Sequence record: OR067838.1 | Source: Escherichia phage KKP 3954 | Strand: one strand, 5' to 3' | DNA: 64,000 nucleotides | In this document: positions 7,198 through 43,240 of the stretch, one piece after another | Numbering within the stretch: the stretch's first letter is position 1 | Layout of the letters: each line of letters opens with the position of its first letter | Made by a program: the position numbers and the translations under genes | Notes under the pieces: generated by a model | The model's database searches: none | The model's input: only the letters and a program-made list of their open reading frames with translations | Told to the model about the DNA's origin: nothing

Positions 7198-7276
7198 TGG
7201 AGGCGGGAATTGGATTTGAACCAATGATCTCCAGCATATGAAACTGGCGAGGACGACCAGACTCCTCTATCCCGCT
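7198..7276 (-). tRNA. tRNA-Met (anticodon CAT)
   Basis: Manual cloverleaf: CCA encoded, acceptor GGCGGGA/TCCCGCT, T-arm ATTGG-ATTTGAA-CCAAT, anticodon loop rc TTCATAT; long D-loop. Confidence 0.6.
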
Positions 7277-7280
7277 ATCA

Positions 7281-7352
7281 TGTATCCCGTGCTGGATTCG
7301 AACCAGCGTCACAATAAATTGTGGATCTCTTATCCTGTAAGTCTAACGGGAA
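7281..7352 (-). tRNA. tRNA-like element, no canonical anticodon arm (possible pseudo-tRNA)
   Basis: Perfect T-arm GCTGG-ATTCGAA-CCAGC and 6/7 acceptor complementarity, but no 5-bp anticodon stem found by hand. Confidence 0.25.
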
Positions 7353-7354
7353 AC

Positions 7355-7428
7355 TGGTTGTTTCGACAAGAATCGAACTTGTGTCTCACGATTATCAGTC
7401 GTGGGTTCTACCATTGAACTACGAAACA
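7355..7428 (-). tRNA. tRNA-Ile (anticodon GAT)
   Basis: CCA encoded; acceptor TGTTTCG/CGAAACA; T-arm ACAAG-AATCGAA-CTTGT; anticodon stem CACGA/TCGTG, loop rc CTGATAA. Confidence 0.7.
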
Positions 7429-7434
7429 TTTAAT

Positions 7435-7511
7435 TGGTCGGAATTGCAGGATTCGAACCTGCGACCCTACGCTCCCAAAGCGTATGCTCTACCAAACTGA
7501 GCTAAATTCCG
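7435..7511 (-). tRNA. tRNA-Pro (anticodon TGG)
   Basis: CCA encoded; acceptor CGGAATT/AATTCCG; T-arm GCAGG-ATTCGAA-CCTGC; D-arm GCTC-TACCAAACT-GAGC; anticodon stem TACGC/GCGTA. Confidence 0.75.
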
Positions 7512-7516
7512 TTATA

Positions 7517-7592
7517 TGGCTGGTCTGTCTGGATTTGAACCAAACCTACGACAGTCAAAGTGTCGTGTGCTACCGGACTACACTACAAACCA
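7517..7592 (-). tRNA. tRNA-Gln (anticodon TTG)
   Basis: CCA encoded; T-loop ATTTGAA; anticodon stem CGACA/TGTCG, loop rc CTTTGAC; one mismatch each in T-stem and acceptor. Confidence 0.6.
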
Positions 7593-7690
7593 ATAAATCA
7601 TTTAATGAAGGGCAACCAGAAGAAGTGTGAGAGAAGGAGAAAACCATGAGTAAAAGAGAAAGTTTTCTGGCAACCCTTTATTAAATAATT

Positions 7691-7764
7691 TGGAGCGTTC
7701 TACGAGGATCGAACTCGTGCCGCCGACTTGGAAGGACGGAATGCTACCGCTACACCAAGAACGC
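7691..7764 (-). tRNA. tRNA-Gly (anticodon TCC)
   Basis: CCA encoded; acceptor GCGTTCT/AGAACGC; T-arm ACGAG-GATCGAA-CTCGT; anticodon loop rc CTTCCAA; one mismatch in anticodon stem. Confidence 0.55.
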
Positions 7765-7775
7765 CCTATATATTT

Positions 7776-7805
7776 ACTATACTACATTTTACTATTTGTT
7801 GTCAA
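7776..7805 (-). promoter_or_regulatory. sigma70-like promoter upstream of tRNA-Gly
   Basis: Minus strand TTGACA-N18-TATAGT, placing the start site a few nt before tRNA-Gly. Confidence 0.4.
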
Positions 7806-8077
7806 GACTTTTATTGATTGGGACAGTGACGAGTATCCCGTTGGGTGACTAGCCCTACGTTCGGTAAGCTAACTTAAAATAATACAAAACCAAAGTCAAA
7901 TATTATTCTTCGTTGCTGTCGATGGGAGAGCCGCTTCTCATTTTGCCCCATCCAACCCTACTCCGGTCAAGTTTCGGGTGACTCTTTTTGTGATCAACAC
8001 AATACTAAGAACACTGTCTTTCGAGCAGACCTTGTGCACAGGAACGACGATCAATCACAATGCTCTTAATGTTGTGT

Positions 8078-8152
8078 TGGTGCTCCCACACTGAATCGAA
8101 CAGAGATCCACGGATTACAAAACCGTTGTAATAGCCATTATACTATAGGAGC
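8078..8152 (-). tRNA. tRNA-Thr (anticodon TGT)
   Basis: CCA encoded; acceptor GCTCCCA/TAGGAGC; T-loop AATCGAA; anticodon loop rc TTTGTAA; single mismatches in T and anticodon stems. Confidence 0.6.
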
Positions 8153-8158
8153 AATGCT

Positions 8159-8235
8159 GGGACTCGGCAGGATTCGATACCTGCAATTCCAGAAGCCTAT
8201 TGGCGACTGGGGGTTTACCTTAACTCTACAAGTCC
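8159..8235 (-). tRNA. tRNA-like element, unresolved fold
   Basis: T-arm-like GCAGG-ATTCGATA-CCTGC (8-nt loop) and acceptor-like complementarity GGACTCG/CAAGTCC; no canonical anticodon arm found by hand. Confidence 0.25.
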
Positions 8236-8242
8236 ATAATTC

Positions 8243-8328
8243 TGGCGATGAGTATAGGATTCGAACCTATATTGTTCTTTCGAACACGGATTAACAGTCC
8301 GCCGCTTAAACCGTTCAGCCAACTCATC
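8243..8328 (-). tRNA. tRNA with anticodon GTT (Asn-type) and an atypical 15-nt variable region
   Basis: CCA encoded; perfect acceptor GATGAGT/ACTCATC; T-arm ATAGG-ATTCGAA-CCTAT; anticodon stem ACGGA/TCCGC, loop rc CTGTTAA; extra GTTC-TTTC-GAAC hairpin. Confidence 0.45.
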
Positions 8329-8334
8329 TTAATT

Positions 8335-8422
8335 TGGTGGTGAGTGATGGAGTCGAACCACCCGAATCGCAATGATAACAGATTTACAGTCTGCCCCGCT
8401 ACCCCTACGGAATTAACTCACC
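8335..8422 (-). tRNA. tRNA-Tyr (anticodon GTA)
   Basis: CCA encoded; acceptor GGTGAGT/ACTCACC; T-loop AGTCGAA; long variable arm (class II); anticodon loop rc CTGTAAA. Confidence 0.7.
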
Positions 8423-8553
8423 TAAATACTAATATTTAAATTCTTTTTAAAATAGCCAGTGTTCGCACCACTAACTATGAGTTATCGGTAAGATGGTGGG
8501 GGGCTATCTTCCGAAAGTTTACTCTATTAAAGTAAGCTACATTAAAAAGAACT

Positions 8554-8639
8554 TGGCGGTAGATGTAGGACTCGAACCTACACGCCGTTTCCGACTACAG
8601 TTTAGCAAACTGTCGTGGCTACCATTTCACCAATCTACC
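8554..8639 (-). tRNA. tRNA-Ser (anticodon GCT)
   Basis: CCA encoded; acceptor GGTAGAT/ATCTACC; T-arm GTAGG-ACTCGAA-CCTAC; anticodon stem ACAGT/ACTGT, loop rc TTGCTAA; long variable arm. Confidence 0.75.
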
Positions 8640-8644
8640 TAATC

Positions 8645-8735
8645 TGGCGGAAGGAGGGAGAGTCGAACTCCCAAGGCTCTTTCAAGCTCGGCGGTTTTCA
8701 AGACCGTTTTCGTCGCCACATCGATTTGCCCTTCC
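8645..8735 (-). tRNA. tRNA-Ser (anticodon TGA)
   Basis: CCA encoded; T-arm GGGAG-AGTCGAA-CTCCC; anticodon stem GCGGT/ACCGT (G-U), loop rc CTTGAAA; long variable arm. Confidence 0.7.
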
Positions 8736-8969
8736 ATACTTATAATCTAACATAAAATAATGATTGTTGTCAATACTTTTTTAAAACATTTTACCATGAA
8801 TGGTGACTCCACCAACCCCCGTTCTCCACGAACGGTGCTCTTCGAGCATTTATGTCTTCTAATATAACCGTGGCCTTTGTTTATAATGTCTGACATACTT
8901 GCCTCATTCTCTGCCACCATGATCAGTAGTGGGTTCAAATCACTTGAGCTAATTCATGTTAAAATGTTC

Positions 8970-9044
8970 TGGTGTCTTTACAAGGAATCGAACCTTGACT
9001 AAGAGTTTAGAAGACTCCTGTGCTATCCATTACACCATAAAGAC
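8970..9044 (-). tRNA. tRNA-Arg (anticodon TCT)
   Basis: CCA encoded; acceptor GTCTTTA/TAAAGAC; T-arm CAAGG-AATCGAA-CCTTG; anticodon loop rc CTTCTAA. Confidence 0.7.
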
Positions 9045-9046
9045 GT

Positions 9047-9121
9047 TGGTGGCCCTGGCTGGTTTCGATCCAGCTACCTATCGGTTATGAGCCGACAGCT
9101 CTCCCATTGAGCTACAGGGCC
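9047..9121 (-). tRNA. tRNA with anticodon CAT (second copy; initiator Met or lysidine-Ile)
   Basis: CCA encoded; acceptor GGCCCTG/CAGGGCC; T-arm GCTGG-TTTCGAT-CCAGC; D-arm GCTC-TCCCATT-GAGC; anticodon loop rc CTCATAA. Confidence 0.7.
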
Positions 9122-39569: not shown

Positions 39570-39877
39570 TGTATAAGATTACAATTATTCAAAGTGTAGG
39601 TAATATCCGTAAAGAAGTTATCTTAGAAACAGAAGATGTTAATCTTGTTCGTGAGATTGTTTTTAAGGAAGATAACCTGCAAGCTGTAGAATCGGATGCA
39701 CCGAATCTTATGGTGGATCAAGAATATTCTGAACTTCGTCGTATTTTTGAAGAGATTCAGAAGAAAGAAACACAACCTACCATAAAACCTTTTGGTCCTT
39801 ATGATCCGAGCAATCCTAGCAGTCCTTGGATCATGAGAAATACAGAACCATATACACCTTTTGAAATTACTTGCTGA
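39569..39877 (+). CDS. hypothetical protein
   Basis: 102 aa; ATGA-type overlap. Confidence 0.5.
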   Translation: MYKITIIQSVGNIRKEVILETEDVNLVREIVFKEDNLQAVESDAPNLMVDQEYSELRRIFEEIQKKETQPTIKPFGPYDPSNPSSPWIMRNTEPYTPFEITC

Positions 39878-39884
39878 GGTGTTT

Positions 39885-40466
39885 ATGGCAGAATTGTTTT
39901 ATACGGGAGTTGGAAGTAGAGACATCTCCGAAGAAGAGTGGGCTTTGATGGTAGGCATAGGGAAATGGCTTTCCAACCTTGGGTTTAAATTAAGGTCTGG
40001 GAAGGCAGAGGGTAGTGATTCTGCTTTTGAAACAGGTGTCCAAGAGTCTGAAAATCCTACTAACAAGGAGATTTATGTTCCTTGGGAAAATTTCAAAGGT
40101 AATCAGATTCCAGGTGATGTTATTGTTCTTGCAAAACCAGATACAATGAACTATGCTATCTCTGTGCAATGGATCAAAGATGTTCACCCAGCTTATGAAA
40201 AGCTTAAGCAGGGTGCTAGAAAATTGCACCAACGTAATGTGCATCAGGTGTTAGGTAAAGATTTGGAGAATCCTGCTCCATCATGTTTCTTGTTGGCTTG
40301 TGCCGATACTGATAAACACGGAGATGCAAAAGGCGGAACAGCTACGGCTTGGAAGATAGCTAAAGCAAATAATGTTCCTTGTTTAAACATTCGTGGGAGA
40401 ACAAAACAAGAGATTTATGATTTTCTACGACCTTTGGTAATGAGGGCAATAACAAGTGATTCCTAA
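39885..40466 (+). CDS. DprA/SLOG-like Rossmann-fold protein
   Basis: Track ORF 39861..40466; GAGGTG RBS supports start MAELFYTG; YTGVGSRD then LRSGKAEGSDSAFETG resembles DprA/Smf. Confidence 0.4.
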   Translation: MAELFYTGVGSRDISEEEWALMVGIGKWLSNLGFKLRSGKAEGSDSAFETGVQESENPTNKEIYVPWENFKGNQIPGDVIVLAKPDTMNYAISVQWIKDVHPAYEKLKQGARKLHQRNVHQVLGKDLENPAPSCFLLACADTDKHGDAKGGTATAWKIAKANNVPCLNIRGRTKQEIYDFLRPLVMRAITSDS

Positions 40467-40968
40467 ACGTAAACGTGGTGAACAAAGAACAAACTTGGCA
40501 GAAATCTTAGATTACAACATGGTTAATGATGTGACAAAAGAAATTCTCCCTGTTGTAGAAGATATTCTTCGTAGAGGGTTACGATTCTGCTCGGATCGGG
40601 TGCATTTCATGTGGACACATAAAAGTGATTCCGCTTTGAATTTCTATCCTTTAGACTACACTCTGAACAATGCAGAGATGAAAGATATTAACAAATATTT
40701 AATGGGGTATAAAGATATAACCGAAACTGTTCTTGGAGAATTGGCAGAAATCTTGGCTAACGATATCCTTAGAAATATTAATAAGGCTCTTGACAGAAGC
40801 CCAGAAGGAGTAGTAGTATCTTTTGCTGTGCCAGATATGGTTAAATATGAGTCTACAATACCTAATAAAGCTTATGCCTTTCTTCGGAGAGACGTTCGTG
40901 GAAATGTGTTGGAGATGGAGTCAAACTACAAGATTGAGGAGGTTTTATGGCAGAGTTCGGATCAGTAA
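40456..40968 (+). CDS. hypothetical protein
   Basis: 170 aa. Confidence 0.5.
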   Translation: MIPKRKRGEQRTNLAEILDYNMVNDVTKEILPVVEDILRRGLRFCSDRVHFMWTHKSDSALNFYPLDYTLNNAEMKDINKYLMGYKDITETVLGELAEILANDILRNINKALDRSPEGVVVSFAVPDMVKYESTIPNKAYAFLRRDVRGNVLEMESNYKIEEVLWQSSDQ

Positions 40969-41237
40969 CAAGTTTTGAAAGTAACTTCGTTACAGCTTGG
41001 GAAGCTTGGGATGAAATGGGTGTTGGGGAACTTTATTTTTACAATGTAACATTACGTCCAGAGTATGCTTACCTGGTACCAGAAGGAACAGTTCAAATTG
41101 GCATGTATTTGTCTTCTCAAGACGGTGTTGTTCAATTTGAGTTTTATTCGAACACAACGGACAACGAATTTACATATCGTGCATTTCATGTCACCATGTC
41201 TTTAGGAGAGGAGAAATTTTATGACGACCAAGTTTAA
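40947..41237 (+). CDS. hypothetical protein
   Basis: 96 aa. Confidence 0.45.
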   Translation: MAEFGSVTSFESNFVTAWEAWDEMGVGELYFYNVTLRPEYAYLVPEGTVQIGMYLSSQDGVVQFEFYSNTTDNEFTYRAFHVTMSLGEEKFYDDQV

Positions 41238-41418
41238 AACAGTAGAAGAAGCCGTAAAAGCAGCTTATGAGGCTTTAGCGGAAGCAGAGCAGTTAGCAGA
41301 TGAGACTGGTAAAGGTTTCCGTTTCTCCCCTGAATATGGGATGGGTGGCTATTATGATCCAGAAGATGAAAATGAGAATACTGGAACAAATTGGCATCCA
41401 TCTTCTTTAAGTTGTTAA
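41221..41418 (+). CDS. small protein, C-terminal W-x-SS-x-C family member 1
   Basis: 65 aa ending NWHPSSLSC. Confidence 0.5.
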   Translation: MTTKFKTVEEAVKAAYEALAEAEQLADETGKGFRFSPEYGMGGYYDPEDENENTGTNWHPSSLSC

Positions 41419-41429
41419 TAGGAGGTAAA

Positions 41430-41705
41430 GTGGGAATCGAAGATATCAAAGGTTATAAGGCGCATACTGACGATAAGATTGGCAAGGTTAACGCTATTAA
41501 AGATGCAGAAGAGCGTTTAGGTTTAATCTTCAAAGCTTTAGAGGAAGAGTATTGTGAAGCATATCATGGGTCTTTTGACGGCACAGAAAAAGAATTAGAT
41601 CTTGCATACGAACGTATTGATCAAATCCGTTGTGCTATTAAACATTTAAAAGAAGCTAGTATGTGGGCTTGTCGTTCAGTTTTCCAACCAGAGGAGAAAT
41701 ACTAA
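41430..41705 (+). CDS. hypothetical protein
   Basis: Track ORF 41391..41705; TAGGAGG RBS supports GTG start at 41430. Confidence 0.45.
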   Translation: MGIEDIKGYKAHTDDKIGKVNAIKDAEERLGLIFKALEEEYCEAYHGSFDGTEKELDLAYERIDQIRCAIKHLKEASMWACRSVFQPEEKY

Positions 41706-41923
41706 TGAGTGATCGTAATGTTGAAGAATTAACTGAAAAAGCCCAAGCTATTATGGCTTTAGTGGACGAACTTACAAAAGAAGCTGAAGATGCTGGTTTT
41801 GGTCTTAGTTTAGAAAATGACGCAATCTGTTTTGAAGATTGGCAATCCTCTTCTTGTTATGGTGAAGGTGATGATGGTTTCGTCGTTAATTCTCAAGGCG
41901 TTTGGCACAGTAGTAGCTGTTAA
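41705..41923 (+). CDS. small protein, C-terminal W-x-SS-x-C family member 2
   Basis: Track ORF 41663..41923; GAGGAG RBS supports start MSDRNVEEL; ends GVWHSSSC. Confidence 0.5.
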   Translation: MSDRNVEELTEKAQAIMALVDELTKEAEDAGFGLSLENDAICFEDWQSSSCYGEGDDGFVVNSQGVWHSSSC

Positions 41924-41932
41924 GGAGAGATT

Positions 41933-42205
41933 GTGGAGTCTGAAGGCGAACTGCTGATAAAAAAGAAAGTTAAAGAGATGGAACAAGCACAAAGAAAGTT
42001 TCGTAAGGAGATTGAAGAACTTTGTGAACAGTTTCAGGAACAAGCTTGGATAGGTGACTACGGTAACGGAGAAACTTATTACCCTACAGGAACGCCAGCC
42101 GCAGATCACTATATTGATTTCATTTGTGAAGATTATGGTGTAGAGTTGGATGAAAATGGTTTAACCACAAGAGGTGTTTGGATCTCTTCTTCCTCAATGT
42201 GTTAG
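41933..42205 (+). CDS. small protein, C-terminal W-x-SS-x-C family member 3
   Basis: 90 aa; GTG start after AAGGAG; ends GVWISSSSMC. Confidence 0.5.
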   Translation: MESEGELLIKKKVKEMEQAQRKFRKEIEELCEQFQEQAWIGDYGNGETYYPTGTPAADHYIDFICEDYGVELDENGLTTRGVWISSSSMC

Positions 42206-42215
42206 TAAATAATAA

Positions 42216-42239
42216 CCCGCTTCGGCGGGTTTTTTTATT
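42216..42239 (+). terminator. rho-independent terminator
   Basis: CCCGC-UUCG-GCGGG hairpin followed by TTTTTTTATT. Confidence 0.65.
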
Positions 42240-42266
42240 GACAGGAATCTGGAAGCTTGATAAACT
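42238..42266 (+). promoter_or_regulatory. sigma70-consensus promoter
   Basis: TTGACA-N17-TAAACT. Confidence 0.5.
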
Positions 42267-42296: not shown

Positions 42297-43240
42297 ATGG
42301 TGTTAATTGGTAGCCGTGCATTGCAAATTCATGCTATGGACATGGGAAAAGACTTGTATCGCCCTTGTGTAGATTTAGATTACCTGTGTATACAGAACAA
42401 GAGTGGGAAGAATTATCAAAAATGTTCTCTCAAGAGGAGTTTGTTGAACTTGTAGAACGTAAAGGAAACAAAGGCCATGTCAAAATGATAGCTGGTGCAC
42501 ATTTGGAATACGATATTGCTTCTCAAGGAGATAGCACAGAAGCTTTGATTAGTTATTGTGAAGATTCTGATGATGTTCGTCGAACTTACGCTGGACATGT
42601 TGTTGCTCCTTTAGATGTGCTCTACCTTCTTAAAATGAGTCATCGTTTTAAAAAGGATAGTCCTCACTTCTTTAAAACTATGAAAGATATTCATTTCATG
42701 CGATCACTAGGTGCAAAGATCCCAGAAAATCTTAAGAGTATTTATGAGTTGCGTGAGAAAGAAACATACACTTACTCTCATCCAAACTTAAACGTGAGAA
42801 GTAAAGACTTCTTTAAAGGTGATGAGGTTCCGTATGTTTATGATCATGACTCTATTCATGAAGCAATCGCAGTAATGGATGCTCCAGCATATAAATCTTA
42901 TATGAAAGATGGAAGTGAAGTTATGACCAGCAAAGAAAAGTTTTTTGCTCAACCAAAACATGTGCGCCTGTTAGGTGTTTATGAAGAAGCGTGCGTTTTG
43001 GCTTTGGAACGTTCACAAATTCCTTTCGGTGAAGAGATCGGAGGTCCAACCCCTAAGCAAAGTTTTATGATGGCTTTATCTAAAGTTTGCACATCTATCA
43101 CTAGTGGTTGGTTTAGGGAATATGCTTGGGAGAACTTTTATATTGTTACTAAACTATATGAAAACATGGGTGAAAACGACTATGTTGAACGTTTTAAAGC
43201 TAATCAACATGTAGTTAAGCCTTTTGAAGGAGGTTATTAA
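42297..43240 (+). CDS. hypothetical protein, frame-disrupted near its 5' end
   Basis: Strong RBS AGAGGAGAAATATT-ATG at 42297 (frame 0, about 52 codons); main 291-aa ORF 42365..43240 in another frame, open from 42314. Confidence 0.45.

Follow-up and report, generated by a model that had tools for sequence, protein, structure and literature searches.

The stretch analysed here (the window), 64,000 nucleotides from Escherichia phage KKP 3954 (sequence record OR067838.1), encodes three small acidic proteins, called A, B, and C below, which end in similar tails containing Trp, paired Ser residues, and a terminal Cys. By the sequence comparisons described below, they are remote paralogs of one large, unnamed, and apparently phage-restricted family (phrog_899), members of which are almost always encoded just upstream of a gene for a predicted nucleotidyltransferase composed of domains DUF7277 and DUF7275 (phrog_2141). 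The location of the tailed arrays next to that gene points to an undescribed two-part phage system, consisting of the small proteins and the enzyme. Our best reading, with a probability of roughly 0.5, is that the tail docks in the enzyme as a substrate or pseudosubstrate. Both gene families are already catalogued (phrog_899, phrog_2141, DUF7277, DUF7275), in each case as of "unknown function". The source phage is a Phapecoctavirus, a phAPEC8-like myovirus of Escherichia coli, and more than 60 sequenced phages, phage ukendt among them, are ~98% identical to this region. The genes of the putative system are as follows.

41221-41418, plus strand: small protein A, 65 residues, isoelectric point (pI) 4.31, ending in NWHPSSLSC; its layout is a helix, F-x-F, YGMGGYY, an acidic linker, and the tail W58-H-P-S61-S62-L-S-C65 (nucleotides 41392-41415, plus strand).
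41705-41923, plus strand: small protein B, 72 residues, pI 4.05, ending in GVWHSSSC, of the double-motif subfamily.
41840-41857: internal motif copy of B, W46-QSSS-C51 (DWQSSSC, residues 45-51), followed by YGEG.
41903-41920, plus strand: terminal motif of B, W67-HSSS-C72.
41933-42205, plus strand: small protein C, 90 residues, GTG start, pI 4.40, ending in GVWISSSSMC; its layout is YGNGETYYP, a long insert, and the tail W83-ISSSSM-C90 (nucleotides 42179-42202, plus strand).
42297-43240, plus strand: DUF7277+DUF7275 gene, phrog_2141, predicted MenT/AbiEii-like nucleotidyltransferase (DUF7275 match, E 7e-76).

An earlier note on this DNA had described three small acidic proteins in close succession with these tails, and all three open reading frames (ORFs) are indeed present on the plus strand, with pI values of 4.05-4.40. 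A strong Shine-Dalgarno sequence precedes each of them, and B in fact starts with the ATG at 41705, overlapping the preceding stop codon (TAATG); judged by these signals the genes look expressed, and their products are hypothetical proteins in all public sources. Among the 1082 ORFs of the window (stop to stop, at least 30 residues, within 64 kb), the pattern W.{1,3}S[ST].{0,2}C$ is matched only by A, B, and C. The claim of a common tail stands inasmuch as W-SS-C is present in all three proteins, but the tail of B is shorter and belongs to a distinct subfamily in which the motif occurs twice.

Pairwise BLASTP among A, B, and C gave no significant match, so that homology had to be established via profiles and intermediate sequences. 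All three proteins match phrog_899, with E values of 1.2e-12 for A, 1.4e-5 for B, and 5.1e-14 for C. Comparison of subfamily alignments with hhalign gave 98% for A and C (96% without the tails), 91% for A and B (57% without the tails), and 28% for B and C. When the last 10 residues were removed from the tail-bearing ORFs of 90 loci, a trimming that kept the motif itself from contributing, A, B, and C still fell into one BLAST-linked cluster, connected by two intermediates each, with all links at E <= 8.5e-5. A profile built from A-like sequences alone recovered C weakly (8.7 bits) and left B undetected. A and C are thus clear paralogs, and B is a more distant member of the family.

An exhaustive HMMER search yielded 860 clusters at 50% identity, and a word-indexed profile search 366 relatives, so that the motif, which the earlier note had proposed to look for in other phage proteomes, proved widespread. 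Signature counts were taken from 258 retrieved members. The common plan consists of an N-terminal amphipathic helix, a short β element with YG(M)GG, a variable acidic linker, and the C-terminal tail, for which the almost invariant consensus is G-W-x-[P/S/A]-S-S-x-x-Cys-COOH; the median pI is 4.4. The terminal residue is Cys in 252 members, W-x-x-S-S-x-x-C stands at the extreme C terminus in 251, and YGMGG is found in 245, making the tail the most conserved feature of the family. Protein A is a canonical member (104 bits with the family profile), and the tails of A and C fit the consensus exactly, while B carries the shorter W-x-S-S-S-C typical of its subfamily. The YG element reads YGMGG in A, YGEGD in B, and YGNGE in C. 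The invariant Ser positions are encoded by TCN in 202 cases and by AGY in 78; the use of all six Ser codons, together with both Cys codons, indicates selection at the level of protein rather than DNA. A DNA-level repeat as the origin of the tails was rejected, since the codons differ. On the homology of the tails and the strong selection acting on them, the earlier note was right.

The subfamily of B follows the pattern F-[D/E]-D-W-x-x-S-S-C-Y-G-E ... W-x-x-S-S-C. An internal motif copy is present in 23 of the 29 proteins with a short tail, T4-like phages included, and in none with a canonical tail. The internal copy in B-type proteins retains its Cys, and the motif behaves as a unit. Pfam contains no model that matches the small proteins, and their family has no name; scans with NCBIfam and PADLOC gave nothing useful. 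No fusion to the enzyme was seen among the longest family members inspected, the two longest included, and no paper was found that mentions phrog_899, phrog_2141, DUF7275, DUF7277, the VOG identifiers, or the motif.

The AlphaFold2 model of A, based on 54 homologs, has a predicted local distance difference test score (pLDDT) of 87 and comprises a helix at residues 8-29, agreeing with the helical N terminus suggested earlier, as well as strands 43-45 and 58-60. The first of these strands, containing YGMGG, pairs in the model with the second, which belongs to the tail. The mean pLDDT of the last five residues is only 66, for which reason this end of the tail is probably exposed. A Foldseek search of the PDB with the model returned 0 hits. 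Compared with all PDB sequences, the family profile matched only AcrIIC4 and designed helical proteins; these matches reflect helix composition and were rejected as non-specific, and MenA1, the small partner of the nucleotidyltransferase MenT1, was absent from them, giving no grounds for placing the family with MenA1.

The two distant genomic contexts opened first both showed a small protein encoded just upstream of a DUF7277+DUF7275 protein of ~300 residues, and among loci anchored on the small proteins the DUF7275 gene lies just downstream in eight of eight. These eight comprise Phapecoctavirus, the T4-like Dhakavirus VR5, an Otagovirus (PE09), and metagenome contigs, including three more metagenomic phages. 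In the opposite direction, 72 of 80 enzyme-anchored IMG/VR loci contain motif ORFs, 1-5 in each, on the same strand and no more than 3 kb upstream. Of all 193 motif ORFs in these loci, 185 occupy the conserved upstream position, compared with eight matches to the tail pattern among the 12,509 ORFs located elsewhere (Fisher p = 2e-185); the motif ORFs with no enzyme gene nearby thus amount to ~4% (8/193). The window conforms to this arrangement, with the array ahead of the enzyme gene at 42297-43240. The largest array size seen is that of VR5 (L005 3668-4927), where five consecutive ORFs end in GAWVSSSQMC, GGWVSSSSEC, TSWVSSSYEC, GFWFTSSMSC, and KIWYPSSC, the last being the ortholog type of B.

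The enzyme family is found in 734 phage records. Among 185,579 bacterial and archaeal species, each represented by one genome, only five enzyme relatives were detected, all in metagenome-assembled genomes and four of them with tail ORFs upstream; in view of this scarcity the module looks phage-specific. Taken together, we regard it as highly probable that both the family and the module are real.

The intact enzyme consists of ~310 residues and includes a large helical DUF7275 domain; the intact ortholog from ukendt matches DUF7277 (PF23942) besides DUF7275 (PF23940). The best structural match found with Foldseek is MenT1 (E 6.6e-4). The invariant residues are G5, S6, D26, D28, and E70, and the sequence carries the features of the DNA polymerase β (Pol-beta) nucleotidyltransferase fold, namely motif I (G-[GS]...D-x-[DE]) and the third carboxylate of motif II, the catalytic carboxylates being intact. 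In the metagenomic phage L089 (4405-7590), the enzyme gene is followed by genes for a T4 Rnl1-type RNA ligase and an AAA_33 kinase-like protein, and tRNA genes lie near the enzyme or the module in Gordonia phage Aphelion (L090 3312-7543) and in VR5 (L005 920-1200). The ligase neighbor and the tRNA genes are hints that the ancestral substrate of the enzyme was RNA or tRNA. The most conserved stretch of the enzyme, K-V-C-T-S-I-T-S-G-W-F-R (residues 262-273 of ortholog P0259, ~43080-43120 in the window), shows the order of the tail motif reversed, with Cys first, then Ser/Thr, and Trp last, which is probably a coincidence.

We propose that the small proteins could be partners of the neighboring nucleotidyltransferase, with the tail as the contact element. 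The acidic body would lie on the substrate-binding face of the enzyme like a nucleic-acid mimic, and the flexible tail would reach into the active site and act there as substrate or pseudosubstrate, where Trp might stack in place of a base while the metal/nucleoside triphosphate site might be offered the hydroxyl of a Ser, or else the thiol or carboxylate of the Cys. Either the tail would then be nucleotidylylated and so mark several distinct client proteins with one tag, or the enzyme would be blocked or retargeted. Three observations are of the kind to be expected if the enzyme recognizes the tail: anciently diverged paralogs differ in body but have one invariant, probably exposed tail in common, they depend on one neighboring nucleotidyltransferase, and a motif of six residues can be duplicated within a single protein. 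Known proteins offer precedents for either outcome: MenA1 blocks the active-site cavity of MenT1, while MNT enzymes AMPylate a conserved Tyr of their HEPN partners, and GlnD and GlnE nucleotidylylate proteins. Functional coupling of the small proteins to the enzyme we consider probable, placement of the tail in its active site evenly balanced, and actual covalent transfer to the tail rather doubtful. We can speculate, tentatively, that the tail is a portable tag on which the MenT-like enzyme, of a fold class best known for extending the 3' ends of tRNA, nucleotidylylates or phosphorylates Ser or Cys, switching 1-5 small acidic effectors on or off during infection, and that it may mimic the 3' end of tRNA. 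Of the roles offered in the earlier note for the tail (modification, metal binding, or interaction), modification and interaction gain circumstantial support from the near-obligatory downstream nucleotidyltransferase, whereas metal binding is disfavored, because 170 of the 258 members possess a single Cys and the family has no conserved His or second Cys.

Three further elements of the window lie within or next to the array.

41430-41705, plus strand: Acb2/Tad1-hairpin protein, homolog of T4 vs.4 (PF24729, E 1.2e-16; phrog_717).
42214-42238, plus strand: intrinsic-terminator-like hairpin AACCCGC-TTCG-GCGGGTT (42214-42231) and T-run, closing the array.
42238-42266, plus strand: sigma-70-like promoter ahead of the enzyme gene, TTGACA, 17 nucleotides, TAAACT, with extended TG; a consensus match only.

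The ORF at 41430-41705 is the one that the earlier note had recognized as unrelated: by sequence it sits inside the array, between A and B, but outside the small-protein family. It scores 61 bits with PF24729, compared with a gathering cut-off of 27, and is thereby assigned to Acb2/Tad1, a known type of cyclic-nucleotide sponge directed against CBASS (an anti-phage signaling system based on cyclic oligonucleotides); its counterpart in ukendt is annotated as 'vs.4 gene product'. Another ORF of 170 residues (40456-40968, plus strand), ending in ...EEVLWQSSDQ with no Cys, was considered as a degenerate fourth member and rejected, since it has no similarity to tail-bearing proteins, the comparison set being proteins of ~150 residues (...AWCSSSM[IS]C) at a comparable position in the related phages L008, L010, and L018. 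The surroundings (~39861-40466 and downstream of 43240) are rich in accessory genes, which according to the annotation of ukendt encode a DprA-like protein, two DNA methyltransferases, a Sir2-family protein, a NinI-like phosphatase, an HslV-like peptidase, and PhoH. Ten tRNA genes (Met x2, Ile, Pro, Gln, Gly, Thr, Asn, Ser, and Arg) are located on the minus strand at 7198-9121, ~32 kb from the array.

Several observations weigh against docking of the tail in the enzyme. The synteny could reflect a common accessory island rather than a common function, and the 80 loci are phylogenetically non-independent, many of them belonging to T4-like phages. Eight of these loci have no tail ORFs, nor are there any near the distant enzymes of Gordonia phage Aphelion, Vibrio phage KVP40, and Alteromonas phage PT11-V22. 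The dependence is therefore asymmetric, in that the small proteins are hardly ever found apart from the enzyme, while the enzyme is also found without them. In the window itself the enzyme gene is frameshifted and A, B, and C are intact: a 2-nucleotide insertion at ~42389-42390 (CTGTGTATAC compared with CTCTG--TAC of ukendt) splits the frame directly after the catalytic DLD motif. This insertion, which the 64 related phage records all lack (best identity 98.3% over 121 nucleotides), is either a sequencing error or a recent natural knockout, and, unless it is the former, the broken enzyme fits small proteins that do not strictly need it. With the terminator and the promoter-like site between them, the array and the enzyme gene appear to be transcribed separately in this phage. 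The enzyme also has no match to Pfam AbiEii/DUF1814, a model that includes the C-terminal motifs III and IV, only DUF7275 and DUF7277 being found even at E <= 10, and no PADLOC match; it is accordingly filed as MenT-like by fold only and not as a MenT/AbiEii member. As for the MenA1 analogy, MenA1 is a helical protein of 68 residues that controls MenT1 by blocking its electropositive active-site cavity, with a C terminus that is dispensable (PMC10435456), so that the analogy does not account for the conserved tail.

The same analogy underlies one alternative, in which the small proteins would be antitoxin-like inhibitors or specificity adaptors, either of the enzyme or of host AbiEii/MenT-type abortive-infection toxins, and would act unmodified, with the tail as a plug. 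It is suggested by the blocking of MenT1, the top structural match of the enzyme, by MenA1, as well as by the acidity of the family, as expected of an RNA-substrate mimic; distant enzyme clades do without the small proteins, giving these the appearance of add-on modulators, and with its two motifs the B type could link two protomers in the way that MenA1 does. Yet one inhibitor should suffice, while 2-5 anciently diverged paralogs are kept adjacent across genera, and the C terminus is invariant here. Sequence similarity to MenA1 is absent, and the near absence of the module from bacterial chromosomes argues against a classical toxin-antitoxin pair. On balance such inhibitors appear unlikely, though far from negligible as an explanation. 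The main rival holds that A, B, and C are independent accessory or anti-defense effectors (decoys, DNA mimics, or small-ligand sponges) linked to the enzyme only by lying in one hypervariable island, the tail being a structural, oligomerization, or ligand-binding element of their own fold. The Acb2 sponge within the array, the abundance of accessory genes nearby, including methyltransferases and Sir2, and a size and acidity like those of many anti-defense proteins are all consistent with it. So are the terminator and promoter that separate the array from a broken enzyme gene, and the modeled tail packs on the Gly-rich YGMGG loop and could form a small anion-binding site. Islands shuffle, however, and the adjacency is nevertheless kept in Phapecoctavirus, T4-like, Otagovirus, jumbo, and uncultured phages with otherwise different neighbors; moreover, Acb2 is the only named neighbor of a known anti-defense type, and the small proteins have no match in PADLOC, the models of which cover defense rather than anti-defense. 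We consider this explanation a serious one but improbable.

Two other possibilities are effectively excluded. The ORFs might be precursors of ribosomally made, modified peptides (RiPPs) or of signaling peptides with a Ser/Cys-rich C-terminal core, and multiple short tandem ORFs with a helical N-terminal part and a Ser/Cys C terminus do bear a superficial likeness to multi-precursor RiPP clusters. In such clusters, however, the relation of core and body is the reverse of the invariant core and variable body found here. The N-terminal part is predicted to fold with the tail, a signal peptide is lacking, and no cyclodehydratase, lanthionine synthetase, radical-SAM enzyme, protease, or exporter is present among the annotated neighbors, leaving this idea very improbable. 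A chance resemblance of the tails, or ORFs that are not genes, is the least credible of all: the lack of significance in pairwise BLASTP among A, B, and C would agree with it, but it is countered by the profiles, the size of the family, the strong ribosome-binding sites, the Ser codon use, and the conserved synteny.

Among the phages that carry the enzyme are many of the T4-like, phAPEC8-like, Otagovirus, and jumbo kinds on which therapy and defense research draw. Both families are annotated as hypothetical only, and a function for them would light up a "dark" gene block that recurs beside anti-defense genes such as Acb2. If the tail is a substrate, the module could prove to be a new protein-tagging system, with a chemistry new to phages; if it is a plug, the small proteins would form a new class of proteins that regulate MenT/AbiE-type enzymes, toxins employed by bacteria against phages, or act as mimics for them. 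In either case, the strict Cys tail, the maintained paralogs, and the neighboring nucleotidyltransferase provide a concrete and cheaply testable hypothesis.

Comparison with known systems reveals partial likenesses. Like the Acb2/Tad1 sponges, one of which lies within the array, A, B, and C are small phage accessory proteins, although they share no sequence similarity with them. In the HEPN-MNT type VII toxin-antitoxin pair, GlnD/PII, and GlnE/glutamine synthetase, an enzyme of the Pol-beta fold nucleotidylylates its partner within a conserved short motif. The acceptor in those systems is a Tyr in a folded partner that has an enzymatic or regulatory role of its own, whereas the candidate acceptor here would be a Ser or Cys of a C-terminal tail carried by several small paralogs. 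Ho et al. (bioRxiv 10.1101/2022.06.09.495361) have described MNT-like nucleotidyltransferases of phages whose products are competitor cyclic dinucleotides against TIR-STING; these enzymes are, like the one discussed here, of the Pol-beta type and located amid anti-defense genes. The signature of that family, GS-x-AY[GAN]T-x4-SDxD, differs from the GS-x19-DxD of the window enzyme and occurs in no window ORF, for which reason identity with these enzymes was rejected; small tail proteins do not figure in that description. The closest described arrangement is MenAT1 of Mycobacterium tuberculosis, in which a MenT-type nucleotidyltransferase, MenT1, is likewise accompanied by a small protein partner, the 68-residue MenA1. 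The phage module is not chromosomal, includes 1-5 paralogs instead of one, with no sequence similarity to MenA1, and comprises an enzyme of ~310 residues that possesses the large extra helical domain DUF7275 and has no AbiEii match in Pfam; and, where the C terminus of MenA1 is dispensable, it is the invariant C-terminal Cys tail that defines the phage proteins.

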